Positions 17,501 to 48,147 are shown, counted from the stretch's first letter. The stretch: 64,000 nucleotides of DNA from Patescibacteria group bacterium (GCA_041499035.1 JBGQJK010000001.1:12314-76313); one strand, 5' to 3'. Numbers and translations: made by a program. The notes: generated by a model not told the origin, from the letters alone.

Positions 17501-18751
17501 ATGGCAGAACAGATTAGTCTCCCCAAAGGCACGGTTCTTCCCAACCACATAGCTATGATCCTTGATGGCAACCGTCGCTGGGCACGTTCGCGTGGGTTTG
17601 AACCGTGGCAGGGGCACTATTATGGTTATAAGGCTGTTAATGCATTAGCGCACGCTACGCGTAACCTTGGGATCCATACGTTCACAGTTTGGGCTTTCTC
17701 TACAGAAAATTGGGAGCGACCGAAGCATGAAATTGACGAGATAATGAATATTTTCAGGCGGGCTCTCAAAGAAACCGAAAAGGATTTCCATAAAGAGCAC
17801 GTTGCTATGGTTCACCTTGGTAGAAAAGATAGATTGCCCATCGATATTCGTTCTGAAGTTGCAAGAATCGAGGCCGAAACGGCAAAATACGCGCCTGAGC
17901 ATATTTTTAATATGGCCATTGATTATGGGGGTAGGGATGAAATTGTCCGCGCCGTTCAAAAAATTGTTAAGGACAAAGTTCCGGCGGATAAGGTTGACGA
18001 AAAAGCTTTTGAAAAATACTTAGATACTTACGGGCAACCTTATCCTGATCCGGACCTTTTCATCCGTACCAGTGGGGAACAGCGTACAAGCGGGCTTCTT
18101 CCGTGGCAGATGACCTATACGGAATTTTATTTTGAGCAGGAACATCTTCCTGACTTTTCTCCCGAAAAACTAAAAGAGGCAATTTTGGACTATAGCAGAC
18201 GCAGGCGCAGATTTGGTGGCAACGATGCCCTGGAGCATTTTGGCTTTGATCCGGAAGTTTTGGCACGCTTGGAACTTAAATGGTGGAGACTCGGGAACGT
18301 TCCGGAGGGAATGAAACTTCGCGAATATGCCATGAAACATATAAGGGAACAATACGGGCTATCAAAGGAGCTCGGTACCCGGGCAGCTCGGCTTCTATTG
18401 GAAGCAATAGCCGAGGAAAACAGGAATAAGCTTGATGAAGCCAAAAACAGTCTCAAAAAGTTTTACAAACTTATTAAGGCTGAAGTTAAGTTGGCATTTG
18501 AACCGGAGATAGTTGCCTCACTCGAGGTAAGGATGCGAGGCGAAAAAGGGGAAGTGGAGGATACCACCCGCGAATATTTGGCGGAAGTTTATAGAATTTC
18601 ACTTTTCCAGGCGGCAAAGGCCGCTCATCTTAAAGTTCTGGCGTCTGTCGAGCGCAATTTAGCCCAAGCGGGGATGGGCGAGAACCACTGGGTTAAGGCG
18701 GAAGATTATCTCCAAAAGTACTACCGCGCACTGAAGGAACGTGTCGCGTGA
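17501..18751 (+). CDS. uppS: cis-prenyltransferase (undecaprenyl-diphosphate synthase family) with a ~170-aa helical C-terminal extension
   Basis: DGNRRWA motif and the rest of the UPPS core; 416 aa in total against a typical ~250. Confidence 0.75.
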   Translation: MAEQISLPKGTVLPNHIAMILDGNRRWARSRGFEPWQGHYYGYKAVNALAHATRNLGIHTFTVWAFSTENWERPKHEIDEIMNIFRRALKETEKDFHKEHVAMVHLGRKDRLPIDIRSEVARIEAETAKYAPEHIFNMAIDYGGRDEIVRAVQKIVKDKVPADKVDEKAFEKYLDTYGQPYPDPDLFIRTSGEQRTSGLLPWQMTYTEFYFEQEHLPDFSPEKLKEAILDYSRRRRRFGGNDALEHFGFDPEVLARLELKWWRLGNVPEGMKLREYAMKHIREQYGLSKELGTRAARLLLEAIAEENRNKLDEAKNSLKKFYKLIKAEVKLAFEPEIVASLEVRMRGEKGEVEDTTREYLAEVYRISLFQAAKAAHLKVLASVERNLAQAGMGENHWVKAEDYLQKYYRALKERVA

Positions 18752-18840
18752 CGACTGCGTGCGGCCAGGCTATGATTGCAGAAGCAATCGCTTACAGAGC
18801 ACTTAAAGAAAGAGTTGCCTAAAAAATAGTACAATCAATT

Positions 18841-20406
18841 GTGTTTAACCGAAGGCGCTTACCGATGGAAGTTGAGCTTGTGGTTTTAAGCTTCCTGGCA
18901 GTTTCTTTATTCACTTTTGCTTACTCATTACAAAACAATTCCCAAAAACCCCAAAAATCAAAAGCTGCAGGCAACACTTACTATGTTTCAACAGGCGGAA
19001 ACGACGCTAATCCAGGCTCGCTTGTCCTGCCTTTTGGAAGTCTAGCAAAAGTGGCCAGTGTGGCCAGAAGCGGAGACACAATTTTTGTAAGAGGCGGAAA
19101 TTATACCTCCGTTGTTGGCGGAGTTAAGTTTTCTGATAGTAATGTCACACTTCGTAATTATCCAGGCGAGCAGGTAGTTATCAAAATGCCTGCCGGGTCG
19201 CATAATAACGATTGGTCGATGTTCCAGTGCTGGCATTCCCCCCCAGGAACAGCGGCTGCAAATGGTTTTGAAGCTGATGGAATCAAAGTTCTTGGAACAG
19301 ACGTTAGCCCTCAAACTTTGCGCGACGGAGTTGTTAGTAAAAAAGGTATTGTTCTTTATACCGATCCGGGTCAATCAAATGCAACTGAAGCCAGTGGGTT
19401 TGAAGTCTCGGGTTGCAACAACTGGGAGGTTTCCGGCGTTGATTTTGTCGGGATGGGCTATGGCATTTTCCAAAAGAAGTGGCTCTACTCGTATGCAGGA
19501 ACAGGAGGGGTAAACTATGCAACTCATGGCTGGTACGTTCATAACAACCGTGTTTACGGCTATACACGGGAGTCCGGATTTCAATTCAATGGTAACTCAA
19601 ACTTAATTGAGAATAATGAGATTCATAAAGTTCTAACCTATACTAACAGTCCATATGGGTGTCAAGGTCTTAACCTACTCGGCCACGACAACATCGTCAG
19701 AAATAATACCATCGATATTTATGGCTCGCCGGTCAGGTGTGACGGAATTCTTTTTGAGTGGGACATCTCGGATAATAACCTCATCGAAAATAATATTATT
19801 TATGGCACCATCGGGTCTTCCTTTAATGTTCAGGGTGGGGATGGCAATATCATTCGTAATAATCAGATATCAAACGGCTACAATGTGTTTGCCCCAAACG
19901 GCAGTACGGCTACATCCTGGCCCTGTGATGAACTTGCTCCGGGTAACTCTGCCGCCTCAATTGTTCCCGCGAATAGCCCCGCAGCTACCGACTATCAGTA
20001 CTTTTGGAATCCCCGCGATTGTGCCTCAAGGAACAATCAATTTAGCGGCAATGTTGTAATACCACCGAGCGGAGTAGGTGGAAACCCTGTTCCTACACCG
20101 ACACCAACAAAAACTCCAAGCCCTACCCCAACGTTAACACCAACCCATACACCGTCGTCTTCACCTACAAAAACGCCTTCCCCTGGACCAAGCGGAACAG
20201 GAAGCCATACTCCCACACCAATTCCTACAGGAACCGCTAAAGTGGGGGATGTGAATGCCGATGGGCTAATTAATATCGTTGATATAGGGTTGATAATTGA
20301 CAATTATGGACAAAGAAACCCTTCATACGTAAAAACAGATGTTAACGGAGACGGCATAGTTAATATAATCGATATTGGCATCGTGATAGACAACTACGGT
20401 AAGTAA
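18841..20406 (+). CDS. secreted right-handed beta-helix (pectate-lyase fold) protein with a Pro/Thr linker and C-terminal class-1 dockerin-like module
   Basis: PbH1-type repeats (NNxIxxN...), a PTPTPTKTPSPTPT linker, and a C-terminal GDVNADGLINIVDIGLIIDNYG ... DVNGDGIVNIIDIGIVIDNYGK. Confidence 0.6.
   Translation: MFNRRRLPMEVELVVLSFLAVSLFTFAYSLQNNSQKPQKSKAAGNTYYVSTGGNDANPGSLVLPFGSLAKVASVARSGDTIFVRGGNYTSVVGGVKFSDSNVTLRNYPGEQVVIKMPAGSHNNDWSMFQCWHSPPGTAAANGFEADGIKVLGTDVSPQTLRDGVVSKKGIVLYTDPGQSNATEASGFEVSGCNNWEVSGVDFVGMGYGIFQKKWLYSYAGTGGVNYATHGWYVHNNRVYGYTRESGFQFNGNSNLIENNEIHKVLTYTNSPYGCQGLNLLGHDNIVRNNTIDIYGSPVRCDGILFEWDISDNNLIENNIIYGTIGSSFNVQGGDGNIIRNNQISNGYNVFAPNGSTATSWPCDELAPGNSAASIVPANSPAATDYQYFWNPRDCASRNNQFSGNVVIPPSGVGGNPVPTPTPTKTPSPTPTLTPTHTPSSSPTKTPSPGPSGTGSHTPTPIPTGTAKVGDVNADGLINIVDIGLIIDNYGQRNPSYVKTDVNGDGIVNIIDIGIVIDNYGK
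20089..20230 (+). repeat. Pro/Thr-linker-coding low-complexity repeat (also at 30880-31080, 31190-31320 and 47330-47420)
   Basis: ccNacNccNac periodicity encoding PTPTPTKTPSPTPT. Confidence 0.6.
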
Positions 20407-20472
20407 TTCACTTTACACTTTTCACGGAAAAGTTTAAGCTTAAATATATTCGTGTTAGCGAATGTGTTTGGT

Positions 20473-22251
20473 ATGGAAAAAAGTAAATATATATTTTTCG
20501 TATTTCTTATAACCGTTTTAGTAAGCCTTGCGTTTCCCCAATTTATCCGTGCCTCAGATCTCACAATTGATTTTTCCCAAGTAACTGGCCCAGCCGAGCG
20601 CCATGCCACGGGGTTTGAATGGATTTTTCCGATGAATGTAACGGCCATAGGACCTTATGTAAGTCAATTAAAGCCAAACATTGTCAAGGACCCGTGGGGG
20701 AATGAGCAAACTGCGAGAGATCTTGGCGCACATAAAATTCAATGGCTGGTAGGAAATGCGGTGGTTACTAAAAATGGACCGGGTACGCATTGGTATCCGT
20801 GGCAGGACTATGCTGTCTGGCAGGCGTGGGTGGCAGGTCGAATAAACAGTTTAACTCAAAACGGCCAACCTCATGAGTGGGTTATTTGGCAAGAGGCCAA
20901 CTACGGTAATCCTGATGTTTGGTCAGGCACACAGGACCAATTTTTTAATACATGGAAAATTGCCGTTCAAACTATCCGTAGCATACGCCCCACTGATCCA
21001 ATAGTAGGCCCAAGCCCGGTACCGTTTGATGCAACATATCTTGAGGCGTTCTTACTCTATGCCAAAGCCAATAATGTTTTGCCGGACGTTCTTTCCTGGC
21101 ACGAACTTACTGATATTGGAGGTACTGTTCCTGCTTTTAATATATATTCATACACCCCAGACCAAATACCCTCGCATGTTAATACAATGAAGCAATTTAT
21201 GCAGGCGAATGGTATAACTTTGGTTAACAGATTTGATATTACGGAATACCAGGGTTTTTCCGACAATTACCGCCCGGGCCCGACGGTTGCGTTTATTGCA
21301 GACCTCGAACGCGTTGGGGCAGAAGGCACAAAAGGGAATTGGGCGGATGCAAATCAACTCGAAGGGCTAGTTACAGATCCGAGTACACCACAACCCCGCT
21401 CAATCTGGTGGGTTTACAAAAAATATGCAGATATGACGGGGAACTTGGTGACGACAACATTATCCAGCGCTATTAACGGATTTGGGTCGTATGACGTCGG
21501 AATGGGAAAGGCGATGGTCCTTGCAGGAAATCAGGGTGGGAGTGGTGCACGTACAATCCAATTAAATAATATTCCTTCTGCTATTGTAAGCGGCGGTAGT
21601 GTAGCCCTTACCCTGGAGCAAATTCCAGATACGGAAAAGGCTGCACTTACCAGCCCAACTATAATAAGCCAGTCAAATATTCCTGTTAGCGGCAACTCAG
21701 TTACGGTTTCGATACCTTCATTTGGTACATGGGATGCCTACGTGATAACTCTTAAAAAACCACTTCCTAATCCAATTAAATCTGCTGTGATATCTGCCAC
21801 TACAGTCACTGCTAGATTCGATACAGTTAATGCCTCTGCGGGTGATTGGCTTGGGGTTTATAAAACCGGAGCTTCCAATACGAGTTTCCTTTCTTGGAAA
21901 TGGATTGACAATACCACTGGGCCCAAACCCACAACAGCCATTACAAACGGAACAGTAGTACTAACGGTTCCAAATTCTACGGAAACTTATGAGGTTAGAT
22001 ATTTTACTAATGGATATCAACTGCTCGGATCGGCAAAGGTAACCACCGGTACCGGTCCTAGTCCCACACCAATTTCGATTAAACCTGGGGATCTTAATGA
22101 TGACGGTAAAGTTGACATTTTCGATTACAACATTCTGGTTGGAGATTATGGAAAAATAGGCTCTGCAGGATTTGTTCCCTCTGACATTGACAAAAACGGG
22201 AAGGTGGATATTTTTGACTACAATTTGCTAGTTGCGAATTATGGTAAATAA
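20473..22251 (+). CDS. secreted clan GH-A-like glycoside hydrolase with a beta-sandwich module and C-terminal class-2 dockerin-like module
   Basis: Conserved leader MEKSKYIF; WQEAN (acid/base) and ITEYQG (nucleophile) motifs; C-terminal GDLNDDGKVDIFDYNILVGDYGK...DIDKNGKVDIFDYNLLVANYGK. The ORF track starts at 20452. Confidence 0.55.
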   Translation: MEKSKYIFFVFLITVLVSLAFPQFIRASDLTIDFSQVTGPAERHATGFEWIFPMNVTAIGPYVSQLKPNIVKDPWGNEQTARDLGAHKIQWLVGNAVVTKNGPGTHWYPWQDYAVWQAWVAGRINSLTQNGQPHEWVIWQEANYGNPDVWSGTQDQFFNTWKIAVQTIRSIRPTDPIVGPSPVPFDATYLEAFLLYAKANNVLPDVLSWHELTDIGGTVPAFNIYSYTPDQIPSHVNTMKQFMQANGITLVNRFDITEYQGFSDNYRPGPTVAFIADLERVGAEGTKGNWADANQLEGLVTDPSTPQPRSIWWVYKKYADMTGNLVTTTLSSAINGFGSYDVGMGKAMVLAGNQGGSGARTIQLNNIPSAIVSGGSVALTLEQIPDTEKAALTSPTIISQSNIPVSGNSVTVSIPSFGTWDAYVITLKKPLPNPIKSAVISATTVTARFDTVNASAGDWLGVYKTGASNTSFLSWKWIDNTTGPKPTTAITNGTVVLTVPNSTETYEVRYFTNGYQLLGSAKVTTGTGPSPTPISIKPGDLNDDGKVDIFDYNILVGDYGKIGSAGFVPSDIDKNGKVDIFDYNLLVANYGK

Positions 22252-22280
22252 GCGGAGCTTGAAACTTATGAAGTTATAAA

Positions 22281-24071
22281 ATGAAAAAAAGTAAATATAT
22301 TTTTACATTTCTTCTGACATTTGCTGTGGCTTTAGTTTTTCCATACTCGGCTCATGCCTCTGACCTCACAATTGATTTTTCCCAGACGATTGGTCCAGCT
22401 CAGCGTCGTGCCACAGGATTTGAATGGCTTTACTTTCCAAATATGAATGCCATGCGCCCGTTCATAACTCAGCTGAAACCAAATATTATTAAAGATCCCC
22501 GTACTGAAGGTTTGGGCTTAAGTCCCGATAACTTTGGCACCGCACGATTTCAGGATATAATTGGACTGGAATATGCTCTCTTTAATTCTTCGTTCGATGG
22601 CGTATGGCCCTACAAGGACTATACAAAATGGCAAACGTTCGTTCAGAATAAAGTAACTACCTTAACCGCAAACGGTACAAAGTATGACTGGGCTATTTGG
22701 CAGGAACCCGACCAAGAGCTAGGAATGCCTGGCGATTACATTGACAAGGCGGTTTGGTCAGGTACCAGAGACCAGTTCTTTGAAACTTGGAAAGTCGCCG
22801 TTCAAGCAGTCCGTCAGCTTCGCCCAAACGATAAGATCGTAGGACCAAGCCTTAAAAGATTCCGTCCGGATTATCTGCAAAGCTTCCTATTGTATGCTAA
22901 AGGTAATAATGTTCTTCCAGACATTCTCTCGTGGAACCAAGTTGGAACCTATATAGGGGAAAATGGACAAACACCTAATGATATTCCCCCTCAGGTGGCA
23001 ACGATACGTCAATTTATGCAAAGTAATGGCATTCCAAATATTCCGATAGAAATAACTGAATACGGCATGTTTAAAAGTGAATATCAACCGGGCTATGCAG
23101 TGGCTTATATTACGAATATTGAACAGTCGCAAATAGAAGGGTCGATTGGTCAATGGGGATGGAGTGGAGTTGGAGGTGTGGTTGGAGGTGAGGGCGGAGA
23201 TTTTCCCAGATTATCCGGTCTGATTACAGATCCGAATGCCCCCCAACCACGTTCGGTCTGGTGGGTTTACAAAAGCTATGCGGATATGACAGGTAATATT
23301 GTTAAAACTACCGCGGCAACAGTCATTAACGGACTTGGAAGTTACGATACAGCCACCAATACTGCCAAAGTGCTTATTGGGAATCAAGCAGGAGTGATAG
23401 GTTCTAAGACAATAACCCTTAAAGGTCTTCCACAGGCCCTGCAAGGAAATGGCAATGTTTTGGCTAAAATTGAACACATTCCAAATACTGAAAGTAATCC
23501 TTTATATGTACCTAACGGAGTCTCAGTAATTCTCTTACCCTTTAGCAATGGTAATGTTGCGGTTACCGTACCTAACGTCGGCACACTCGACGCCGCAGTA
23601 ATTACGATTACCAAGCCGCCAACTATAAGTGCGAATGTTTCGTCAAATCAAATAAATGTCAGTTTTAATAATTCAATCGCACTGACAAATGATTGGATTG
23701 GCATTTTTAAACCGGGGGATGCAGTCAATGCTTATTTGGATTGGAAATGGTTGAATAATGCCCAAGGCGCAGCCCCTTCGAGTCCCGTTACCAACGGTTC
23801 TGTTACTTTAACTTTGCCAGCTGCGGGTAATTATGAAGTACGTTATATAAATGCAGGGTCAGTTTTAGCAACAACAAATGTATCTGTTGGTTCAACTGCT
23901 AAGATTGGCGATCTTAATGGTGACGGCAAGGTAGATTTTTATGATTACAACATTTTTGTTCCGGACTATGGTAAAACCGGTGCTCCCGGTTTTGTTGTTT
24001 CCGATATAGATAAGAATGGCAAGGTAGACATTTTTGATTACAACATTTTGGTCGGTAATTACGGGAAATAG
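22281..24071 (+). CDS. paralogous secreted GH-A-like hydrolase with class-2 dockerin-like module
   Basis: MKKSKYIF leader, WQEPD and ITEYGM motifs, and the same C-terminal dockerin. Confidence 0.55.
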   Translation: MKKSKYIFTFLLTFAVALVFPYSAHASDLTIDFSQTIGPAQRRATGFEWLYFPNMNAMRPFITQLKPNIIKDPRTEGLGLSPDNFGTARFQDIIGLEYALFNSSFDGVWPYKDYTKWQTFVQNKVTTLTANGTKYDWAIWQEPDQELGMPGDYIDKAVWSGTRDQFFETWKVAVQAVRQLRPNDKIVGPSLKRFRPDYLQSFLLYAKGNNVLPDILSWNQVGTYIGENGQTPNDIPPQVATIRQFMQSNGIPNIPIEITEYGMFKSEYQPGYAVAYITNIEQSQIEGSIGQWGWSGVGGVVGGEGGDFPRLSGLITDPNAPQPRSVWWVYKSYADMTGNIVKTTAATVINGLGSYDTATNTAKVLIGNQAGVIGSKTITLKGLPQALQGNGNVLAKIEHIPNTESNPLYVPNGVSVILLPFSNGNVAVTVPNVGTLDAAVITITKPPTISANVSSNQINVSFNNSIALTNDWIGIFKPGDAVNAYLDWKWLNNAQGAAPSSPVTNGSVTLTLPAAGNYEVRYINAGSVLATTNVSVGSTAKIGDLNGDGKVDFYDYNIFVPDYGKTGAPGFVVSDIDKNGKVDIFDYNILVGNYGK

Positions 24072-24073
24072 TT

Positions 24074-25345
24074 ATGAAAAAGAGTAAATATATTTTTATA
24101 GGATTTGTTTTAATTGCTTTTGCAGAATTCGTCTTTCCGTCATCAGCTCGTGCAGTTTCAATTCAATCTCAAGTCGACGCCGCGCCAGCCGGTTCCACAA
24201 TTCTCATTCAACCGGGCACTTATAACGAAGTTGTAACAATTAATAAAGCTATCATTTTAAAATGTGCTACCCAGAAGACCTGCGTCACGCATAGCTTTAT
24301 CATTAACGGCAGCGGGGTAACTGTAGACGGGTTTTACAGTTTAGGCTCGAGTAACTATGAGGGTGCAATGATTGTAAATGGAAATTCCAACACTGTCTCC
24401 AACAATGTTATCGAAAGTGCCTGTATGGCGGGAATTGTAATCAAAGGGAGTAGTAACCTGGCCCTGAACAATGAAATCTTAAAATCCCGGCAATGCCCGG
24501 GGAGCGGATCTGACGCTGACGGAATACGGATTTTTGCCGACGGAAACGTTGCCCGGGGAAATTATATTCATAATATTTCTTCACTTCAAAACCCGACCGC
24601 CCACATTGACTGTTTCCAGTCATGGGGAACACTTACTAATGCAACTATTGAAAATAATTATTGTTACAATTTGGAATCAGGTACAACCGGAGCCGGTACT
24701 ACAGGAGTTCAAACTGATGTTGGCAACGTTCACAATATCACAATCCGCAATAATGTCTTCCGTGTTGCCCACGGCCTTAACATGAGGGGAGATGGTATCT
24801 CTGCTACGAATAACGTTTTTGTTGGGGATTATTACAACACATCTTATGTGTTTTTGGATGTAATTACAGGTGCAATCTTCAAAAATAACATTATTTATAA
24901 TACTACCAACGGAATAATAGTCGGCTCAGCCTATAAAACAGGAATTACCGGCGGATATAATATTATTTACAATGCCAACGGCGCCGCTCCGAGTCGGGAT
25001 AGCGCCTATTTTTCCTCAACCGATAAATGGCAAACCATGAATCCGGCATTTGTTAATGCGAATTCAGGAGATTTTCATTTGCAATCAGGTTCACCCGCTT
25101 GTTCCGCCGGGGAAAACGGAACCTATGCCGGCGCATATTCTTGCGGAAGCGGTACGAGCCCGGTACTTTCCGCCAAACCCGGTGATCTTAATAATGACGC
25201 AAAGGTGGATATTTTTGATTACAATCTACTGGTTGGGGATTATGGAAAAACCGGTTCAGCCGGCTTTGTTCCTTCCGATATCGATAAAAACGGTAAGGTG
25301 GATATCTTCGATTACAACATTCTGGTGGGGAATTATGGGAAATAA
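24074..25345 (+). CDS. secreted beta-helix repeat protein with class-2 dockerin-like module
   Basis: MKKSKYIF leader, parallel beta-helix repeats (GNSNTVSNNVIESA... NNEILKS...) and the C-terminal dockerin. Confidence 0.55.
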   Translation: MKKSKYIFIGFVLIAFAEFVFPSSARAVSIQSQVDAAPAGSTILIQPGTYNEVVTINKAIILKCATQKTCVTHSFIINGSGVTVDGFYSLGSSNYEGAMIVNGNSNTVSNNVIESACMAGIVIKGSSNLALNNEILKSRQCPGSGSDADGIRIFADGNVARGNYIHNISSLQNPTAHIDCFQSWGTLTNATIENNYCYNLESGTTGAGTTGVQTDVGNVHNITIRNNVFRVAHGLNMRGDGISATNNVFVGDYYNTSYVFLDVITGAIFKNNIIYNTTNGIIVGSAYKTGITGGYNIIYNANGAAPSRDSAYFSSTDKWQTMNPAFVNANSGDFHLQSGSPACSAGENGTYAGAYSCGSGTSPVLSAKPGDLNNDAKVDIFDYNLLVGDYGKTGSAGFVPSDIDKNGKVDIFDYNILVGNYGK

Positions 25346-25347
25346 TT

Positions 25348-27435
25348 ATGGAAAAGAATAAATACATTTTTATATTTCTTTTAGTTTTTTTAATGTCCGT
25401 TACTTTTCCCAAAAGTGCCCGCGCCGCACTTCAACCATTTGATATAACCACTCTTGATACCGGAGTTACGTATTACGCTTCTTTCGGCAGCTACAACCAA
25501 AAAATTGTCCAAAACCAGTATGGAATCTTTCTTACTTATAAAATAACGGACGACGCCAATGATAATGGCGTATGGCGACTCCTTAGAAGCATCGACGGCG
25601 GCAAGACTTTTAATAAAATTTATGAAGCCAACTATAATACAAAACCCCCGGTAGTTGAAACAGACGGCAGCGGCGTAATCTATTTGGCAACCGGAGGAAC
25701 GAATGTTTCGCTTTACAGATTTTTACCCCAGAATAATTTTGCAAACCCGGTAATTACTTCTATTCCAAATTCAGGTTCCGGAAAGATGTCAATGATTATT
25801 GATGAGAGACGGGGCCAGCTTTATTTTTTCTCCCACTACGCTTACTTTTCCATTATCGGACTTGACGGAACTATCAGGAAAAGTTATCAGCTGGGCTCGC
25901 CCTTTTGCGGCCCCAACGCCTGTTACCAATACCCCCTTTTAACTATGGACGAAAATGGCAACTTGATTGCCGCCTGGACAACTATAAAAAATGGTGCTTA
26001 TTTATACTGGGACATTCATTTTATTATTTCTAAAGACGGGGGAAACTCGTGGCAGAAGTTGGACGGGACGCATTTGAATTTGCCGCTTGTACCTGATAAC
26101 ACGGGGTCAACAGACCGCGTTACACTTGATGATGAATTTAATGTTCATACCTGGTTATCATCGGTTCTGGCCAAAAATGGCAAGATTTATTTTCCTTATC
26201 TGGCTCAATTCACTCCTTACAGACAGCATTTTGCCCGCTATGACCTCTCAACCGCAAAAAAGGATTTGGATGTAAATCCAGTTTGGAAGGGAGAAACACT
26301 ACAGATCGACACACTCCATGGGTTTTGTGCTACAAAACTTCAGCAGTCAACTTTTCCGATTTATTGCATAGGGAATGTGGGAGGAACCAAGATCGGAGTA
26401 ATTGTAAGTTCTGATCAGGGAGCAACCTGGCACGATTATGCCGAAAGCGTTTTTCCGGAAGATTCCATTCCATGGTCCATCGCCGGAGCTCGGGAAATTA
26501 CCCCCGACGGCTATATGATCGGAACCTATACCAGTGAAAAAAGTACGGATTTGAATAATTCACAAGTGCGTTTTTTCCGGGTGAAAGTTGGCAATTCGGT
26601 AGAACCAAGTCCTCCTGCCTTTTATTGGCCGATGGATGAAACAACTGGAAATATAGTTAATGAGGTATCCAGCATTTATAATGGCACCACAACTGCGGGA
26701 GTAGTAGACGGGAAAATCGGTAAGGCCAGAAATTTCATTTCCACGGCCTGGACCAATAGCACCAGGTTGCAGTTTCCTCTTTTTGACGGGAATATTAACA
26801 CCAAATCTGGATTTTCCGTTGAAGCCTGGATAAAAAAGAATAGCAGTAGTGCCCTTTATGAACACCGTGTTATCGGCAACAGGTACAACTGGAATGACGC
26901 AAACGGCTGGTACCTTACATTCCCGACAAATGAAAATATTGCCTTTTCCGTTCAATCGATGAGTAACCCTTCGGCAAATTTATATTCGACTCAGCCCATC
27001 GCACCCGGTACTTGGTACCACGTAGTTGGAGTTTATGATAATGGAACAATAAAGTTATACATTAACGGTGTTTTGGACGGAACCTTAGCCGGAGTAAGCT
27101 ACACCCCATCTTATCGTGAGTTGACAATCGGGGGGCAGCCCGACACAACTAATTATGGTTTTGACGGCATTATTGATGAAGTTCATTTTTATCCGTTTGC
27201 TCTCTCAGCAGATATAGTCAAGCAGCATTACCTTGGTTCCGGTTCAGTCCCAACACCCATTCCTAAACCTGGAGACCTGAATAACGACGGCAAGGTGGAT
27301 TTTTACGATTACAATATTTTTGTTGGGGATTACGGCAAAACAGGAGTCGCCAGTTTTGTTCCCTCCGATATCGACAAAAACGGCAAGGTGGATTTTTACG
27401 ATTACAATATATTAGTAGGGAATTACGGAAAATAA
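25348..27435 (+). CDS. secreted BNR-repeat (sialidase-like propeller) + LamG/ConA-like lectin domain protein with class-2 dockerin-like module
   Basis: BNR motifs SIDGGKTF, SKDGGNSW and SSDQGATW; a LamG_3-like segment (FSVEAWIKK...WYHVVGVYDNGTIKLYINGV); and the dockerin. Confidence 0.55.
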   Translation: MEKNKYIFIFLLVFLMSVTFPKSARAALQPFDITTLDTGVTYYASFGSYNQKIVQNQYGIFLTYKITDDANDNGVWRLLRSIDGGKTFNKIYEANYNTKPPVVETDGSGVIYLATGGTNVSLYRFLPQNNFANPVITSIPNSGSGKMSMIIDERRGQLYFFSHYAYFSIIGLDGTIRKSYQLGSPFCGPNACYQYPLLTMDENGNLIAAWTTIKNGAYLYWDIHFIISKDGGNSWQKLDGTHLNLPLVPDNTGSTDRVTLDDEFNVHTWLSSVLAKNGKIYFPYLAQFTPYRQHFARYDLSTAKKDLDVNPVWKGETLQIDTLHGFCATKLQQSTFPIYCIGNVGGTKIGVIVSSDQGATWHDYAESVFPEDSIPWSIAGAREITPDGYMIGTYTSEKSTDLNNSQVRFFRVKVGNSVEPSPPAFYWPMDETTGNIVNEVSSIYNGTTTAGVVDGKIGKARNFISTAWTNSTRLQFPLFDGNINTKSGFSVEAWIKKNSSSALYEHRVIGNRYNWNDANGWYLTFPTNENIAFSVQSMSNPSANLYSTQPIAPGTWYHVVGVYDNGTIKLYINGVLDGTLAGVSYTPSYRELTIGGQPDTTNYGFDGIIDEVHFYPFALSADIVKQHYLGSGSVPTPIPKPGDLNNDGKVDFYDYNIFVGDYGKTGVASFVPSDIDKNGKVDFYDYNILVGNYGK

Positions 27436-27455
27436 GCGGAGCTTGTTAGAATATC

Positions 27456-28691
27456 ATGAAAAAAATATTATTCTGTTTCATAGTTTTCTTTATAGGTATC
27501 TCATCGATAGCTGTCACACCTGTCTATGCCGCTTTAGGGGATGCTACTATTACACATAATGGTGCTACTGTAACCACCCAAGCTTCTTTTGCCGGTGGTA
27601 TTACGTCGCTCAAATACCAAAATTTTGAATACATCTTTCAGCAAATATATCAAGGCGCTTTCATTCAGTATGCCTGGCAAAACGGCAACCACGGAGAGTG
27701 TTTTAATCCTACAGAACAGGGCGCTAAATGTGATTCTGAGGGGAAAACCACTTCTATACTCCAAAATTTTAGCTCTACAAGTACCAGCATTACCAAAACG
27801 GTTTTACCATCCTACTGGCTTAGCCCGGAAGCAACAAATACTTATTGCCATACAAGCCAATACTGTAATATTGATCAGGAAAACCACGCAGGAACAGCGG
27901 TTAATACGACGGCAGTTAGTAATAGCAGCTTGCAGACAACATTTACTCTTGATCCCGAAAATCTTCCCCACGCGCTCGGCCTAACAGGAACGATTACGTT
28001 TGGATCCACAGATACAGATCCGGGTTTGCCTTTTGTTATGCTTGCGCCGTCGCACTTTTTTTCCACCGCATTTACCAAATCCTACCGCTATAATTATGGA
28101 AACGGTGCACTTCTTCCCCCAACAGTGGGCAATTACTGGAACACGACATTACCCCCGGTGCTGGCAACAACAGATGACGCTCACGCAGTCAGCGTCTATT
28201 CAGCCGGCGTTCCGCGAATGATTCCCCTCTCCCTCCCCCAAACGACACCCAACAACATTACTGGTTATACGCTAAATCACCTCACTTCCCCCACGGACTT
28301 GTGGGAGTTGGACATCCGCCTTCCCTACGTGCCGCCGGGGAATACTACCGCAATTACTCCCGGCATGAAACTGTCCATACGTTCATATGTCGTTTTTGGT
28401 ACGCTTTCCGAAGTCACAGCACAACTCCACGCGTTATACCTGGCACATCCCCCGATTGCCGATAATTGCATGGGAATAGCCTGGAAGGGCAAATATGCAG
28501 CCACAGATTGTCCTGTCCCGCTTCCCGGAGATTTAAACGGTGACGGCAAGGTGGATATTTTTGATTACAATATTTTGGTTGGGGATTACGGAAAGACAGG
28601 TTCTGCCGGTTTCGTTCTTTCCGATATCGACAAAAACGGCAAAGTGGATATTTTTGACTACAACTTGCTTGTTGGAAATTATGGAAAATAG
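27456..28691 (+). CDS. secreted beta-rich protein of unknown function with class-2 dockerin-like module
   Basis: A signal peptide and the C-terminal GDLNGDGKVDIFDYNILVGDYGK...DIDKNGKVDIFDYNLLVGNYGK. Confidence 0.5.
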   Translation: MKKILFCFIVFFIGISSIAVTPVYAALGDATITHNGATVTTQASFAGGITSLKYQNFEYIFQQIYQGAFIQYAWQNGNHGECFNPTEQGAKCDSEGKTTSILQNFSSTSTSITKTVLPSYWLSPEATNTYCHTSQYCNIDQENHAGTAVNTTAVSNSSLQTTFTLDPENLPHALGLTGTITFGSTDTDPGLPFVMLAPSHFFSTAFTKSYRYNYGNGALLPPTVGNYWNTTLPPVLATTDDAHAVSVYSAGVPRMIPLSLPQTTPNNITGYTLNHLTSPTDLWELDIRLPYVPPGNTTAITPGMKLSIRSYVVFGTLSEVTAQLHALYLAHPPIADNCMGIAWKGKYAATDCPVPLPGDLNGDGKVDIFDYNILVGDYGKTGSAGFVLSDIDKNGKVDIFDYNLLVGNYGK

Positions 28692-28693
28692 AC

Positions 28694-30274
28694 ATGAAAA
28701 AGCGTAAATGTATTTTTTGGGCATTTTTTCTAACCTTATTCGCCAGTTTTGTTTTTCCTGTTTCAGCCCATGCGGCTATCTATTATCTTTCAACAAACGG
28801 AAATGACAACAGCCCCGGTAGTCAGGCCTCTCCCTGGCTCAGTCCAAACCACGCGGTTAGTTGCGGGGACACGATTTTAGCTGCTCCGGGACTTTCGTAT
28901 GCAGCGTCGAATTTTGCCGGCGGTAAATGGGGAAATGTAAACTGTCCTGCAGGGAATAATGTCGCCTGGCTTAAATGCGCGACGTTCGGTACCTGCAAAG
29001 TCATCGGGACGGGGTATGACGCAATACGCGTCAGCGCGAGTTACTGGGGAGTGCAGGGCTTTGAAGCTACTAATGCAACAGGGGCATGCTTCACGGCTAC
29101 GCCAACCGGTAGTTCGATGATTCATCATATTATTTTTGCAAACAATATAGCCAATGGTTGCCAAAATAACGGTTTTAGTTCCTACCCTTTTTATGCAGGA
29201 ACCGCGCCGCCCAGCGTTGATTATCTGGCAATTATAGGTAACCTTGCCTACAATGCAGCCGGTGGAAATAGTTATTGTTTTAGCGGTATTTCCGTCTATG
29301 AACCCAGGAATTTTGATACTGCTCCGGGCACGCACGTTTATATTGCCCAGAATATTTCCTGGTCGAACAATGATGGTCAATACTGTCCGGGTAATAGCGA
29401 TGGCGAGGGGATTATTTTAGACGACTGGAAAGGGGACCAGTCAGGTTATACTACAGGTTATTCCGGTCAGGGTGTTGTCGAAAACAACCTGGTTCTGGGT
29501 AACGGCAGTGCCGGAATCGAGCCGTTTCATAATTCGGTAGCCTCGATAATTATCCGGAATAATACGTCGTATGCCAATAACACAGATTTACATCATGCAG
29601 GAACGTATCTGGGAGAAATTCTGATCAGCCTCTCATCGTTCATAACTGTGAAATACAATATTGTCCATTCCATAGTGGCAACCTGCTGCGCATCTCATTA
29701 TCCGGTCTTTGCTCTCTATGTCGGATCGTCTGACAATACTAATATACTTGATTATAATTGGGTCTATAGTATTTCGGGAAACAATACGGGTATCAATGCT
29801 TCTCCTGGCTTTTCCTTTGGCAGTCATCAAACGTTTGGTATCAATCCGGGCTTTGTAAATCCTTTGGTTCCGGGAGCACCGAACTGCAGCGGCACCTCGA
29901 GCACACTAGATTGTATGAAGACAACGCTCGCAAATTTTGTGCCTTCCGCGTCAGGAATATCCGGATATGGTTATCAGCCGGTAACCGGTGCTTACTTATC
30001 GAATTCTTATTATCCCTCATGGCTCTGCAATGTAACAATTCCGAGTGGTATTATTTCCAATTATTGTTTGCCCACAGGTTCAGTTCCAACCCCTGTTCCA
30101 GTTATTCCAGGCGACCTTAATGGTGACGGCAAAGTGGACTTTTACGATTACAATCTTTTTGTAGGGGACTACGGGAAAACCGGCTCACCCGGCTTTGTTC
30201 CTTCCGATATCGACAAAAACGGCAAAGTTGATATTTTTGATTACAATTTACTTGTTGCAAATTATGGGAAGTGA
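28694..30274 (+). CDS. secreted beta-helix protein with class-2 dockerin-like module
   Basis: MKKRKCIF leader, repeats similar to the 18841 and 24074 proteins, and the dockerin. Confidence 0.55.
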   Translation: MKKRKCIFWAFFLTLFASFVFPVSAHAAIYYLSTNGNDNSPGSQASPWLSPNHAVSCGDTILAAPGLSYAASNFAGGKWGNVNCPAGNNVAWLKCATFGTCKVIGTGYDAIRVSASYWGVQGFEATNATGACFTATPTGSSMIHHIIFANNIANGCQNNGFSSYPFYAGTAPPSVDYLAIIGNLAYNAAGGNSYCFSGISVYEPRNFDTAPGTHVYIAQNISWSNNDGQYCPGNSDGEGIILDDWKGDQSGYTTGYSGQGVVENNLVLGNGSAGIEPFHNSVASIIIRNNTSYANNTDLHHAGTYLGEILISLSSFITVKYNIVHSIVATCCASHYPVFALYVGSSDNTNILDYNWVYSISGNNTGINASPGFSFGSHQTFGINPGFVNPLVPGAPNCSGTSSTLDCMKTTLANFVPSASGISGYGYQPVTGAYLSNSYYPSWLCNVTIPSGIISNYCLPTGSVPTPVPVIPGDLNGDGKVDFYDYNLFVGDYGKTGSPGFVPSDIDKNGKVDIFDYNLLVANYGK

Positions 30275-31497
30275 TAGTATTTAAAAGAATGGATACATTG
30301 GTTCTACGCAGTAAACTAAATCTCTTTTTTTCTTTTTTTAAAAGGAAAAAAGTGGCGGTTCCTATTATTTCTACTATTCTCACGATAGCAGTTGTTGTCA
30401 CGGGCGTTGCCTATATCCGCCAAAGGCAGGGACTCACTAAAGTTGGCGCGGCGGGTGTTGCTCTTCAGCTTCTTACAGCAAGTTCTACGGTAACTAAAGG
30501 TTCCGAGTTTAATGTTAATGTCTACATTGATACAAAAGGATTGGCCGTTACGGGTACACACTTAAGTGTTAAGTATGATCCGAATTTACTGCTTGGAGAA
30601 ACAATGACGGCAGGAACGGCTTTGCCGGTTGTATTTATTCCCGGACAAGTTTCCGCAGGCTCCGCAACCATTGATTTAGGTAGTACTCCCGCGGCTCCAC
30701 TTAACGGAACAGGAATCTTGGCAACAGTAAAGTTTAAAGTTTTAGGGCAGGGGACAACTACTGCCGTTTCAATGGATTCTTCAACCGGCGTTGCCGCTTT
30801 GGGACAGTCGGGTAACGTTGCGGGAACTCTACCTACTCTTAACCTGACGATTGCCGGTTTATCAACGCCCACGTCGACTCCGACCGCTACACCAACCCAC
30901 TCTCCTACGCCGACACCTTCCAAAACTCCTTCTCCCACACCAACCCCTACTAAAACTCCCACGCCTACGCCAACAAAAAGCCCATCGCCTACACCCACAC
31001 CGTCGAAAACACCAACACCTACTCCCAAACCGACGCCTACACCTAAACCAACTCCCACTCCTACCCCGGTGGCTCAGTGCAACAGTACTTGTACAACCAA
31101 TAGTAATTGTCCGTCAAACTTAATCTGCTCAGCAGGCAAGTGTAGAAATGCTGCCTGTACTGCTACGTTAAACTGTATTTGTGCTACGCCCACTCCCACA
31201 CCGAGTCCGACACCAACACCCACCCCCACGCCTACTCCGACACATTCTCCTACGCCTACACCATCACCCTCTCATTCCCCGGGAGCCTCGCCAACTGCCA
31301 GTCCATCTCCTTCAGGTATTGCTAAAGCGGGTGATGTTAACGGCGATGGCTTAGTTAACATTATCGATATAGGCATAATTATAGATAACTACGGGAAAAC
31401 TCCAGCAACAAGCAGCAACCCCAAAGCCGATATAAACGGCGACGGAATTATTAATATAGTTGATATCGGGGTAGTGGTAGATAACTACGGGAAGTAA
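30271..31497 (+). CDS. membrane-anchored scaffoldin-like protein: N-terminal TM, cohesin-like module, PT linker, Cys-rich module, PT linker, class-1 dockerin
   Basis: Cohesin-like hallmarks (LSVKYDPNLL ... ILATVKFKVLG); the Cys-rich stretch CNSTCTTNSNCPSNLICSAGKCRNAAC; and C-terminal GDVNGDGLVNIIDIGIIIDNYGK...DINGDGIINIVDIGVVVDNYGK. Confidence 0.55.
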   Translation: MIVFKRMDTLVLRSKLNLFFSFFKRKKVAVPIISTILTIAVVVTGVAYIRQRQGLTKVGAAGVALQLLTASSTVTKGSEFNVNVYIDTKGLAVTGTHLSVKYDPNLLLGETMTAGTALPVVFIPGQVSAGSATIDLGSTPAAPLNGTGILATVKFKVLGQGTTTAVSMDSSTGVAALGQSGNVAGTLPTLNLTIAGLSTPTSTPTATPTHSPTPTPSKTPSPTPTPTKTPTPTPTKSPSPTPTPSKTPTPTPKPTPTPKPTPTPTPVAQCNSTCTTNSNCPSNLICSAGKCRNAACTATLNCICATPTPTPSPTPTPTPTPTPTHSPTPTPSPSHSPGASPTASPSPSGIAKAGDVNGDGLVNIIDIGIIIDNYGKTPATSSNPKADINGDGIINIVDIGVVVDNYGK

Positions 31498-31505
31498 ACT
31501 TACAA

Positions 31506-31784
31506 TTATTTTGAAGTCCTCTGTTCTTGAACTCTGATAGTAATCTTACCAGTTGGTTGACCAGGAACCAGTAATGGGCAATAAAATGTATAGTACACCC
31601 CAGTGTGCTCTTGACTTCTGAAAAGACCTTCGTGTGCTGGATTGACCTTGGCTTTTGTAGCCAGAGCGTTTAGATCGATTGGCTCAGGCACGGTTTGGAC
31701 CAGCGATTTGAAAACATCCAAGTTACAGTTTCCAGGACATCCGGCACAGCGAGCAATATCTGCGACTAGTTCTGTAATAGCCAT
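31506..31784 (-). CDS. small DUF1858-like Cys protein (CxGCP ... IDLNAL)
   Basis: CAGCPGNC followed by an IDLNAL segment, resembling redox-disulfide DUF1858 proteins. Confidence 0.35.
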   Translation of the reverse strand: MAITELVADIARCAGCPGNCNLDVFKSLVQTVPEPIDLNALATKAKVNPAHEGLFRSQEHTGVYYTFYCPLLVPGQPTGKITIRVQEQRTSK

Positions 31785-31828
31785 AGGTCGTATTTATACC
31801 ACTTCCGTGCCTGTTAGTCAATTTTATA

Positions 31829-33367
31829 GTGTGGGAAAGAGTCATCTTGCCAAGCGGGGAGTGGCAGTTTAAACTACTAAACATGCAAAACTGGCTATTT
31901 AAGAATAAGACTATTCTTTCGATTCTCGATAAATATAAAGATATGTGGGCTCTAAGCTACGCCTCAGGAGTGGCCGGTTGGGATTTGGAGACATATATGC
32001 CAGAGATGGGCGCCATGGCCCGTGGTGAGGCACTAGGGAGGCTCTCAACTATCCGCCAGAGGCTCTTCTTGGACAAGGAGTTTATCGGTTTAATTCACCG
32101 GGCGGAAAAACAAAAAAATCTTACTGATCCAGAGCGCGGAGTCATCCGAGTTTTGCTTCACTCGCTCAAGTTCTACGAAAAGCTTCCACCCAAGTTTTTG
32201 GAGGATTTCAGCCGGCTTACAAGTCAGGCAACTGTAGTCTGGCGTGGGGCAAAAGCTAAAGACAACTTTAAACTCTTCGAGCCTCAGCTTTCAAAGATTT
32301 TTGATATGAATCGGCGAATGTCGGACTTCCTGGGCTACAAAGATTCACCATACGATGCGCTTCTCGATCAATTCGAGGAGGGCTTAACAAGCAGGGAAGT
32401 CGAACGCTTCTTTGGAGAAATAAAAGAACCACTTAAGAATCTACTTGTAAGAATCGAAAAGTCACCCAAGTTTTTCAAAAAACACAAACTGGAAAACGCT
32501 CTTTACGATGAAGCAACTATCAAGAGCTTAAATCTTAAAATAATGAAGCTCCTTTGGGCAGACTCCAGTCGTCTCCGGCTGGACATTTCAACTCATCCCT
32601 TCACCACCTCCTTTTCTAATACGGATACCCGTATAACTACATGGTATCACAAGAAGGATTTCGGTCGAAGCATACTGGCCGTGGTACACGAATTTGGTCA
32701 CGCTTTGTATGATTTGCAGTGTACAGATCAACTTGAGATGACTCCTATTCAAGGGGGGTCCTCCTTGGTGATACATGAGTCGCAAAGTAGGTTCTGGGAA
32801 AATTTTGTGGGCAGAAGCGAAAGCTTCATCCAATATTTCCTTAAAGACATGAGCGCTGCGGTACAACTTAAACTTTCCGCTGGCGAAGTCTACTCCTATT
32901 TCAATAAGGTCAGGCCCGGGCTCCTTAGAGTCGAGGCCGACGAGGTTACATACCACTTCCATATTATGCTCAGATTTGAAATCGAAAAAGGCTTAATCGA
33001 GGGTAAACTTAAAGTAAAAGACTTGCCGGAAATTTGGAATTCAAAAATGAAAGATTACCTGGGAATTGTACCAAAGCGCGATTCTGATGGGATCTTGCAG
33101 GATATTCATTGGAGCATGGGGAGCGTCGGCTACTTTCCGACATATTCGCTTGGAACTTTTCTCGGCGCGCAGTGGGAACATGAAATCTCAAATATGAAAA
33201 TAAGCAAATCTACAAATTACAAAGAAATAGAAAAATGGCTGGGGGAACATATTCATAAGTACGGATCTACCTACACACTCGAGGAGCTATTGAAGAAAAA
33301 TGGAATGAAGTTCGATCCCAAAGTGAATCTGAATTATCTCCTGGAAAAATACTCCAAGATATATTAA
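31829..33367 (+). CDS. M32 carboxypeptidase (Taq-type)
   Basis: HEFGHALYD (HEXXH) and the IQDIHWS...GYFPTYSLG motif. The start may be the later Met (MQNW..., about 31880). Confidence 0.75.
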   Translation: MWERVILPSGEWQFKLLNMQNWLFKNKTILSILDKYKDMWALSYASGVAGWDLETYMPEMGAMARGEALGRLSTIRQRLFLDKEFIGLIHRAEKQKNLTDPERGVIRVLLHSLKFYEKLPPKFLEDFSRLTSQATVVWRGAKAKDNFKLFEPQLSKIFDMNRRMSDFLGYKDSPYDALLDQFEEGLTSREVERFFGEIKEPLKNLLVRIEKSPKFFKKHKLENALYDEATIKSLNLKIMKLLWADSSRLRLDISTHPFTTSFSNTDTRITTWYHKKDFGRSILAVVHEFGHALYDLQCTDQLEMTPIQGGSSLVIHESQSRFWENFVGRSESFIQYFLKDMSAAVQLKLSAGEVYSYFNKVRPGLLRVEADEVTYHFHIMLRFEIEKGLIEGKLKVKDLPEIWNSKMKDYLGIVPKRDSDGILQDIHWSMGSVGYFPTYSLGTFLGAQWEHEISNMKISKSTNYKEIEKWLGEHIHKYGSTYTLEELLKKNGMKFDPKVNLNYLLEKYSKIY

Positions 33368-37199: not shown

Positions 37200-37305
37200 G
37201 GCAGATTTACCATTTTTCATTTTCCACTTTCCATTTATTTTCTAATTTCCAATTGACAAATTACAAATAGATGGCAGATGACAGATTGAAAATCGAAAAT
37301 TAAAT

Positions 37306-40089: not shown

Positions 40090-40113
40090 GCGAAGCTTGA
40101 AACTTATGAAGTT

Positions 40114-48144: not shown

Positions 48145-48147
48145 TTT

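Follow-up and report, generated by a model that had tools for sequence, protein, structure and literature searches.

A predicted minimal cohesin-dockerin assembly with two dockerin classes in a Patescibacteria genome

The cohesin and dockerin genes

Positions 18841-31497 of a 64-kb stretch of DNA from a Patescibacteria group bacterium (JBGQJK010000001.1:12314-76313, called the window below and the scope of all counts of cohesin and dockerin open reading frames, ORFs) hold eight consecutive ORFs on the plus strand, P1 to P8, which the ORF listing places where an earlier note on this DNA had put them. In this array, seven secreted proteins that end in a dockerin are followed by a cohesin protein with a dockerin of its own. 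The same arrangement had been claimed in the earlier note, and it is borne out by the ORFs, by Pfam, by profile matches in the Protein Data Bank (PDB) and by AlphaFold2 (AF2) modelling. A second locus at 47011-48822 on the minus strand holds another cohesin protein, referred to as the anchor cohesin protein, and a ninth dockerin protein, P9. The dockerins form two classes, A (P1, P8 and P9) and B (P2 to P7). The genes are the following, with PT denoting Pro-Thr and aa amino acids.

18841-20406, plus strand: P1, secreted Pel9A/PL9-like right-handed beta-helix protein with a PT linker and a class-A dockerin (nt 20248-20403)
20452-22251, plus strand: P2, secreted, predicted GH39-like glycosidase with a beta-sandwich module and a class-B dockerin (nt 22090-22248)
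22281-24071, plus strand: P3, secreted, predicted GH39-like glycosidase, paralogue of P2, with a class-B dockerin (nt 23910-24068)
24074-25345, plus strand: P4, secreted probable beta-helix protein with a class-B dockerin (nt 25184-25342)
25348-27435, plus strand: P5, secreted protein with weak N-terminal BNR/Asp-box signals, a LamG domain (Laminin_G_3) and a class-B dockerin (nt 27274-27432)
27456-28691, plus strand: P6, secreted protein with an uncharacterised domain of ~325 aa and a class-B dockerin (nt 28530-28688)
28694-30274, plus strand: P7, secreted protein, possibly a beta-helix, with a class-B dockerin (nt 30113-30271)
30271-31497, plus strand: P8, 408 aa, with a hydrophobic N-terminal segment (nt 30352-30417), a single cohesin (nt 30451-30855), a PT linker, a module with eight Cys (8-Cys module, nt 31078-31182), a further PT linker and a class-A dockerin (nt 31333-31494)
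47011-48144, minus strand: anchor cohesin protein, 377 aa, with an N-terminal hydrophobic segment, a cohesin (~nt 47605-48036), a PT linker, an 8-Cys module (nt 47410-47514), a transmembrane helix (nt 47140-47199) and a charged basic tail of ~42 aa
48148-48822, minus strand: P9, 224 aa, small protein, either secreted or anchored, that combines two Cys-rich modules with a class-A dockerin (nt 48151-48306)

From P1 to P8, the intergenic gaps measure 45, 29, 2, 2, 20, 2 and -4 nt in order. The 2-nt gaps and the 4-nt overlap point to an operon, and at least P3 to P8 look co-transcribed; a promoter and terminator scan of 18500-32000 returned terminator-like sites no commoner than in shuffled sequence and no clear operon boundary. 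All dockerin and cohesin proteins of the window begin with a secretion or anchor segment. The N-termini of P2 to P7 read as classical signal peptides, composed of M(K/E)K..YIF, a hydrophobic stretch and A-x-A. Those of P2-P5 and P7 are nearly identical, running from M(K/E)K(S/N/R)K(Y/C)IF... to SA(H/R)A, and the mature domains behind them are unrelated; leader and dockerin together look like a conserved cassette around variable cargo.

A six-frame regular-expression scan of the window for the 12-residue Ca loop of dockerins finds paired loops at the C-termini of eight ORFs with a strict pattern and adds P4, whose first loop has Ala at position 6, with a relaxed one. The resulting nine dockerin ORFs are P1-P8 and P9 at 48148-48822(-), and one additional chance match, a single loop, falls in a His/Asp-rich ORF. 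In the customary numbering of the Ca loop, all nine dockerins carry D/N at positions 1, 3, 5, 9 and 12. Their paired loops lie 30-32 residues apart, which corrects the spacing of about 35 residues claimed earlier. Within each protein the two dockerin segments share 13-16 of 22 residues, and in characterised dockerins such internal symmetry goes with a dual binding mode.

All nine dockerins match Pfam Dockerin_1 (PF00404, cutoff 22.9 bits), as the earlier note had anticipated, but only P1 (24.0 bits), P8 (33.8 bits) and P9 (34.8 bits) exceed the cutoff; P2-P7 individually remain below it at 16.5-22.4 bits, with P4 at 16.6. When 13 dockerins of the P2-P7 class are combined into a profile, it matches the Bacteroides cellulosolvens dockerin 2y3n_B in the PDB with E 8.2e-10 and both repeats aligned, followed by many other solved dockerins, and EF-hand proteins appear among the weak matches.

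The two classes are ~20% identical to each other. The consensus of class B is GDLNxDGKVDxFDYNxLVGxYGK and that of class A is GDVNxDGxVNIxDIGxxIDNYG. Class-B dockerins are mutually 76-88% identical in protein and 70-79% in DNA, and the excess of protein over DNA identity indicates conservation by selection, not recent gene conversion. With hidden Markov models of the two classes, P1 scores 81 bits for class A versus 23 bits for class B, P9 scores 95 bits for class A, and P2, P4, P5 and P7 score 119, 121, 116 and 120 bits for class B. The helix positions that usually set dockerin specificity differ as well: I-G-x-x-I-D in class A versus Y-N-x-x-V-G in class B. By these sequence features, the seven dockerins of P1-P7 are not one class, and P1 has the class of P8's own dockerin; because of this shared class, only P2-P7 probably dock on P8.

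Exactly two ORFs of the window carry cohesins, one cohesin each. Both pass the cutoff of Pfam Cohesin (PF00963, 24.1 bits), P8 with 29.0 bits and 47011-48144(-) with 44.1 bits (E 2.9e-11), the latter agreeing with an earlier pointer to a module near 47619-48048. A profile of 18 P8 homologues matches the PDB cohesins 3ghp, 5aoz and 5m2o at about 1e-6, and it also matches 1g1k, 1ohz and NagJ cohesins (range 1e-6 to 1e-3) and PDB dockerins. In the AF2 model of P8, computed from the 18-homologue alignment, residues 61-195 are all beta with a confidence score (pLDDT) >90. The first 46 Foldseek matches of this model in the PDB are all cohesins, with TM-scores of 0.82 to 2vo8 and 0.78 to 1g1k, so that the module at 30439-30855 is predicted to be the cohesin beta-sandwich that had been expected there. 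The PT linkers, Cys-rich module and own dockerin ascribed to P8 are likewise present, as the 8-Cys module and the class-A dockerin, and the PT/Cys stalk before the dockerin spans ~155 residues. The anchor cohesin protein is devoid of a dockerin, and the P9 gene lies immediately upstream of its gene. The two cohesins are ~26% identical and fall in separate clades of the cohesin tree. A third, small cohesin class known from relatives was searched for in the window and none was found; the window also holds no sortase gene. Since it has a single cohesin, P8 is by its predicted domain layout a monovalent adaptor or anchor and not a multi-enzyme scaffoldin.

The low Dockerin_1 scores of P2-P7, the weak FG-GAP matches that their dockerin regions also give, and the EF-hand proteins among the weak PDB matches would suit a different account, in which the dockerin-like repeats are generic Ca-binding tails that lack a cohesin partner in this organism and the cohesin-like domains are unrelated Ig-like surface modules. 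This account is hardly credible: dockerins are the best PDB matches for either class, the two cohesins score above the Pfam cutoff, one of them has the cohesin fold in prediction, and dockerin and cohesin genes adjoin each other far above chance.

The 35-residue module common to P8 and the anchor protein has its eight Cys in the same spacing, C-x3-C-x6-C-x5-C-x4-C-x5-C-x5-C-x-C, and its only Pfam signal is a sub-threshold Dumpy_DPY match. The Cys-rich modules of P9 (48370-48603(-)) are of other kinds; one of them, C..PAC..(8)..C...GWC, recurs in the protein P0013, where it sits between cohesin and dockerin. A 178-aa ORF antisense to P8 (30522-31058(-), GVGVGLGVGV...) was rejected as a gene, being a by-product of the codon repeats of the PT linker. 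Directly downstream of the anchor cohesin gene, 46610-46963 (-) is a 117-aa ORF whose N-terminal segment is hydrophobic and whose body is extremely rich in His, Asp and Glu (HDDDHDKNNDHEEHDDHDNHGHK...HKEDDHDHH), and it has no Pfam match. Possibly its product is secreted, binds metal or Ca and is linked to the Ca-dependent dockerins.

Cargo domains of the array

The cargo modules differ from gene to gene. Two clan GH-A hydrolases had been proposed, and profile comparison confirmed P2 and P3, which are 47% identical, as diverged GH39 members and predicted glycosidases. Against Pfam Glyco_hydro_39 (cutoff 26 bits), P3 scores above at 27.2 bits and P2 below at 19.9 bits. In the PDB, P3 matches 8uwt (7.6e-25) and 5u22 (3e-22), together with the GH39 xylosidases 6yyh, 1px8 and 1w91 (1e-7 to 1e-5), and P2 matches the same two leading structures (8uwt 8.5e-20, 5u22 1.6e-18). 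The P3 segment 'iwqepd' (WQEPD) aligns with IWNEPD/IWNEPN and 'iteyg' aligns with INEYS/INEYC/ITEFN: Glu is kept in both motifs, and Gln replaces Asn before the first Glu. The two aligned Glu occupy what we take to be the acid/base and nucleophile positions of GH39. Between the GH39 domain and the dockerin, P2 (~21800-22090) and P3 (~23640-23910) have a beta-sandwich-like module of ~100 aa, which gives weak SKICH matches of 18.7-21.9 bits, below cutoff, and may be an unclassified carbohydrate-binding module.

Three right-handed beta-helix proteins had also been claimed, and the support for them is graded. P1 stands at the threshold, its Pel9A-like_beta_helix score of 25.2 bits being equal to the Pfam cutoff, and its N-terminal region matches the PL9 rhamnogalacturonan lyase 5olq in the PDB with E 2.4e-5. 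P4 reaches 18.4 bits for Beta_helix, below cutoff, and has no PDB sequence match. P7 shows Dockerin_1 only in Pfam, and what it has in common with P1 (E 4e-4) and P4 is an N-terminal cap motif, YY.ST.GND..PGS. For P5, described earlier as a BNR propeller joined to LamG, the LamG part is strong (Laminin_G_3, 96.5 bits) but the BNR part is weak, at 24.8 bits against a cutoff of 27.

P6 is the one protein to which the earlier note could assign no function. Its domain has no Pfam or PDB match, also when compared with the PDB as a profile, and no Pfam family occurs among 36 remote relatives. A full HMMER search yields 277 remote representatives of the domain, and all four close orthologues examined (4/4) carry a class-B dockerin. 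The AF2 model from a five-sequence alignment has a pLDDT of 33, and its fold is unusable.

No Pfam match to cellulase or cellulose-binding families occurs in the eight array proteins, in P9 or in the cargo of related loci. The cargo of related loci in Candidate Phyla Radiation (CPR) bacteria comprises M10/M12 metalloproteases, calcineurin-like and PLC-type phosphoesterases, a GDSL lipase and DUF4832/4874 proteins. These results bear on whether the array is a true cellulosome that degrades plant cell wall or cellulose. Cohesin and dockerin modules are present together with glycoside-hydrolase cargo, and Bell et al. read the cohesin and dockerin proteins of Shapirobacterales in this sense (bioRxiv 10.1101/2021.08.21.457207). 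For the window, such an identity is very improbable: the cellulase and cellulose-binding families are missing from the Pfam matches just described, every cohesin protein has a single cohesin, relatives carry proteases, lipases and phosphoesterases among their cargo, and the GH39-type enzymes are nearest to diverged GH39/xylosidase-like structures, not to cellulases. The classical cellulosome was rejected on cargo content and single cohesins. What stands of the cellulosome architecture claimed earlier is the cohesin-dockerin assembly; a multi-cohesin scaffoldin, cellulase cargo and CBM3 are not found in the window. Judged by its predicted modules, the system is cellulosome-like in assembly and not in function, because no cargo matches a cellulase family.

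Gene order in relatives and genomic setting

Related loci were collected with dockerin-based patterns from a 7-sequence alignment, which also returned unrelated dockerin proteins of Chloroflexota and Clostridia. In close relatives of P8 (265-344 aa), an N-terminal hydrophobic segment precedes a cohesin, which a PT linker joins to a class-A dockerin. Genes that recur in their neighbourhood encode a small cohesin-like protein, a cohesin protein of the anchor clade, and GH39 and Wzy_C-TPR proteins; the anchor-clade relatives end in an IPETG/IPVTG-like motif and a hydrophobic tail. Two syntenic relatives show the arrangement again: in locus L024, class-B dockerin genes (for a GDSL lipase and an uncharacterised protein) adjoin a P8-class cohesin gene, and in L028 they do so with the downstream M32 peptidase gene kept as in the window.

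A metagenome collection scanned with the class-B dockerin profile alone gave 79 loci, among which 50 are informative, that is, non-duplicate with 500 nt or more of sequence downstream of their last class-B gene. A cohesin ORF on the same strand, starting -100 to +400 nt downstream of the class-B gene, is found in 27/50 loci, and 26 of these cohesins are P8-class and one is anchor-class. In the controls, a cohesin lies just upstream in 2/22 loci, and the farther flanks hold four cohesin ORFs in 162 kb. The 26/27 share of P8-class cohesins supports docking of class-B cargo on the P8-type cohesin. Nearly all cohesin proteins adjacent to class-B genes have an N-terminal hydrophobic segment, and many (~200-230 aa) consist of nothing more than this segment and a cohesin. 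Because so many P8-class proteins have only these two parts, the N-terminal segment is the likely membrane anchor, and P8 is probably held in the membrane by it. At the other locus type, a class-A dockerin gene lies directly before the anchor-clade cohesin gene in the window, L009, L011, L012 and L013.

Some observations would suit an assembly lacking hierarchy, in which either cohesin binds either dockerin class, or P8-type proteins join head-to-tail by means of their own class-A dockerins, and a surface mesh or cell-cell bridges result in place of an ordered two-tier display. Only class-A dockerins accompany the P8-class cohesin-dockerin proteins of L001-L004 and L029, some P8-class cohesin proteins themselves bear class-B dockerins (L032, L050, L076), and the dockerin of P8 stands on its stalk of ~155 residues. 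Such an assembly is nevertheless quite unlikely: class-B arrays are directionally associated with P8-class over anchor-class cohesins by 26 to 1, the classes differ at the helix positions given above, and AF2 left P8's dockerin undocked on its own cohesin, which is weak evidence. A clean split of P8-class cohesins into class-B-adjacent and class-A-adjacent subclades was considered and is broken by P0012. The exceptions L001-L004, L029 and P0012 mean that neighbourhood does not correspond one-to-one with specificity.

Locus L014 (JACZRW010000011.1, Patescibacteria group bacterium) has four consecutive dockerin-protein genes with M10/M12-like metalloprotease, Big_7, CARDB and fn3 domains; after these come genes for two cohesin proteins with one for a cohesin-dockerin protein between them. 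Its dockerins score equally against the class-A and class-B models. Class-B dockerin genes are frequent in the contigs L030, L042, L069, L075, L088 and L103 (ERZ12926xx), whose names, 'Hain-H43/H51-01um/02um', indicate 0.1-0.2 um filter fractions of groundwater wells. Read from the names, this would fit carriage by ultra-small cells.

The window belongs to a contig of 247,313 bp that is on record at NCBI and JGI. The closest named relatives of AtpD in the window are Candidatus Woesebacteria (62-64% identity) and a Patescibacteria group bacterium, and its relatives at 77-84% identity include proteins on contigs of 0.93 and 0.95 Mb. A P6 orthologue of 83% identity is labelled Patescibacteria. 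These relatives support a CPR/Patescibacteria host, with Microgenomates the most likely group, and they uphold the earlier description of the genome as CPR-like. Several housekeeping proteins fall short of NCBIfam cutoffs, in keeping with a divergent lineage, and the 64-kb window holds no rRNA gene. Some public records of metagenome-assembled genomes (MAGs) that hold close relatives (L009, L010, L012, L013) are titled 'uncultured Gammaproteobacteria bacterium', and P0142, an L11 protein in the 90%-identity cluster of the window's L11, is named 'Alphaproteobacteria bacterium'. Both labels look wrong because the AtpD relatives are of CPR type.

Housekeeping genes around both loci encode phosphoglycerate mutase, ATP synthase, MreB, Ddl, UppS and peptidase M32; an L11 and NusG gene block is also in the surroundings, where other ribosomal proteins were judged from translations. 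Genes for polyprenyl synthase, UppS and a WecG/TagA glycosyltransferase lie just upstream of the array, and the anchor cohesin locus adjoins genes for a Wzy_C protein and GDP-mannose 4,6-dehydratase. This setting would suit a service to the cell's own envelope, with docked GH39-like and beta-helix enzymes trimming its surface glycopolymer or exopolysaccharide. PslG-type GH39 enzymes, which act in Psl biosynthesis, offer a comparison, and a cohesin-dockerin protein, a cohesin protein, GH39 and a Wzy_C-TPR protein recur together in relatives. Self-service of this kind is unlikely but has to be taken seriously as an alternative. The metalloproteases, lipase and phosphoesterases of related loci do not fit glycan biosynthesis easily, seven different enzymes secreted for the trimming of one polymer would be many, and the envelope-gene neighbourhood may be coincidence in a small, gene-dense genome. 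The host attachment or cell-wall remodelling suggested in the earlier note is speculative.

Other genes of the window were noted in passing. The undecaprenyl-diphosphate synthase gene (17501-18751 (+)) encodes 416 aa with the Prenyltransf domain confined to residues 20-239, and nothing in Pfam matches its C-terminal extension of ~175 aa. ATP-grasp and RimK-like genes cluster at 36303-41025 (+); among the products are a 7TM_transglut membrane protein, an alpha-L-glutamate ligase-like protein whose C-terminus is weakly retropepsin-like, a RimK-like protein and a methyltransferase, and a further ORF of the cluster is ATP-grasp-like by eye only. At 54103-55191, 55240-55878 and 56256-57320 (+), a Peptidase_C39-domain protein is encoded between two D-Ala-D-Ala ligase-type genes. 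The ORF at 42659-43471 (-) is L1-like (identity by eye) and has a Lys/Glu-rich N-terminal extension of ~60 aa.

Proposed display system and its known counterparts

The reading that we prefer, with a probability of roughly 0.55, is a minimal, non-cellulolytic cohesin-dockerin assembly of a Microgenomates bacterium, which would display hydrolases and lyases at the surface through two specificities and direct them at external or host-envelope glycans. In this assembly, P2-P7 would be exported (two GH39-like glycosidases, beta-helix proteins, the LamG protein and P6 with its uncharacterised domain), and their class-B dockerins would plug Ca2+-dependently into the cohesin of P8. P8, encoded by the last gene of the array and predicted to be co-transcribed with it, would be membrane-held through its N-terminal hydrophobic segment. 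The class-A dockerins of P1, P9 and P8, the last on its long PT stalk, would plug into the anchor cohesin at 47011-48144(-), which would be fixed to the cell by its C-terminal transmembrane helix. The outcome would be a two-specificity layer of hydrolases and lyases tethered on a very small cell. Because each cohesin protein is monovalent, this layer would consist of many anchors with one load each and would not be a fixed multi-enzyme particle. Its role would be to depolymerise external or host-envelope glycans near the cell, with the products captured by a biosynthesis-poor organism. Surface display of assorted depolymerases is favoured because the cargo is varied and has no cellulase or cellulose-binding matches.

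Several observations weigh against this assembly. The Dockerin_1 scores of P2-P7 are individually under the cutoff, and the AF2 model of the P8 dockerin region is of low confidence, with a pLDDT of 40-60. P8 offers one cohesin for six cargo proteins, which precludes a fixed multi-enzyme complex on any single P8 molecule. An adjacent cohesin is absent from 23/50 class-B loci, class-A enzyme genes adjoin P8-class cohesins in L001-L004 and L029, and P0012, which adjoins class-B genes, falls in the subclade of the L001-L004/L029-type P8-class cohesins. Both loci also lie among envelope-glycan genes, a setting that fits self-remodelling as well as foraging.

Among known systems, the Ruminococcus flavefaciens cellulosome has a ScaC-type monovalent adaptor with one cohesin and one dockerin, and a ScaE-type sortase-anchored single cohesin. 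R. flavefaciens-related structures (5lxv, 2zf9, 4uyp) are among the Foldseek matches of the P8 model. The likeness extends to several features: an adaptor of one cohesin and one dockerin that would convert one dockerin specificity to another, a separate single-cohesin protein that is predicted to be cell-fixed, more than one dockerin class per organism, and LPXTG-like IPETG/IPVTG signals at the ends of the anchor-protein relatives. Unlike R. flavefaciens, a fibre degrader of the Bacillota, the host here belongs to the CPR and has a genome of roughly 1 Mb. The window has no multi-cohesin primary scaffoldin, and no cargo or scaffoldin matches a cellulase or cellulose-binding family. The window's anchor would use a transmembrane helix, and P8 also has a putative N-terminal hydrophobic anchor.

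The non-cellulosomal NagH/NagJ/NanJ glycosidases of Clostridium perfringens (2vo8, 2jh2, 2ozn, 2w1n) are similar in that the pairing combines secreted enzymes for non-cellulosic, host-type glycans, as is proposed here. Few structures match P8 better than their cohesins (2vo8, TM 0.82; 2jh2, TM 0.73-0.80), which are also among its profile matches. In C. perfringens, however, cohesins and dockerins sit on the enzymes themselves, and there is neither a dedicated membrane-anchored cohesin protein nor a dockerin-cargo operon followed by a cohesin gene. The non-cellulosomal cohesin 2xdh of Archaeoglobus fulgidus resembles the present ones as a stand-alone cohesin of a non-cellulolytic prokaryote; it ranks eighth among the Foldseek matches of the P8 model (TM 0.70) and is a weak profile match. 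It differs in being archaeal, and we know of no dockerin-cargo array adjacent to it. Non-cellulosomal cohesin-dockerin modules are reportedly widespread, a view attributed to Peer et al. 2009.

In a survey of 2024 that covered 305,693 RefSeq genomes, cellulosomes were confined to Bacillota, and four non-cellulolytic 'scaffoldin-containing' oddities came in addition, among them monovalent adaptors of Paenibacillus guangzhouensis, transmembrane-anchored single cohesins of Lachnoclostridium sp. MSJ-17, and Limihaloglobus (PMC11557425). Because that survey required a scaffoldin with at least two cohesins in RefSeq genomes, single-cohesin systems like this one are outside its scope. Features that the oddities share with the window are cohesin-dockerin adaptors of the monovalent kind, single cohesins that have a transmembrane helix at the C-terminus, and dockerins on non-lignocellulose enzymes, but they belong to other phyla and no conserved order of cargo array and cohesin was described for them. 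Closer in lineage, a MAG of Candidatus Shapirobacterales BG1-G2 (Microgenomates) has cohesin- and dockerin-domain proteins whose expression was seen by metaproteomics, which are treated in one paragraph and read as a cellulosome (bioRxiv 10.1101/2021.08.21.457207 / PMC9123182). Compared by description, the two cases share the superphylum and the presence of cohesin and dockerin proteins, and the Shapirobacterales account, unlike the present one, contains no analysis of gene architecture, dockerin classes, anchoring or cargo. In a cultivated Saccharibacterium, a dockerin-domain protein is among the essential envelope proteins (PMC10633639). No literature was found on the architecture, two dockerin classes, anchoring or cargo of a CPR cohesin-dockerin system.

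The order of a cargo array followed by a cohesin gene was seen in those genomes examined that carry a CPR label, and many metagenome contigs whose origin is unassigned show it too. A broader proposal, which we hold as tentative and rather doubtful, is that the cargo array with a membrane-tethered single cohesin is a widespread system, used by ultra-small bacteria in place of large envelope machinery, with two orthogonal pairs, and that it strips the host envelope. If so, interchangeable surface hydrolases (glycosidases, lyases, proteases, lipases and phosphoesterases) would arm a cell with a genome of ~1 Mb, P8 could in addition reach the cohesins of other cells through its PT-stalked class-A dockerin, and the cohesin-dockerin pairing would be a host-interaction device, not a fibre-degradation device.

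A large part of bacterial diversity belongs to the CPR, whose members for the most part rely on other cells, and how their surfaces engage hosts or substrates is poorly known. The presence of cohesin and dockerin in the CPR had been mentioned once; new here are the conserved order of a cargo array followed by an anchored cohesin, two predicted specificities and non-cellulolytic cargo in ultra-small bacteria. For cellulosome research, this would be a minimal two-specificity system outside Bacillota, of a kind missed by surveys of RefSeq genomes and multi-cohesin scaffoldins, and it may supply new orthogonal cohesin-dockerin pairs for protein engineering. In conclusion, two cohesins, two dockerin classes and ten genes form a compact, sequence-defined module set whose arrangement recurs in many metagenome contigs, including, by contig names, apparent 0.1-um groundwater fractions, and which gives a testable hypothesis for how ultra-small cells may display enzymes.

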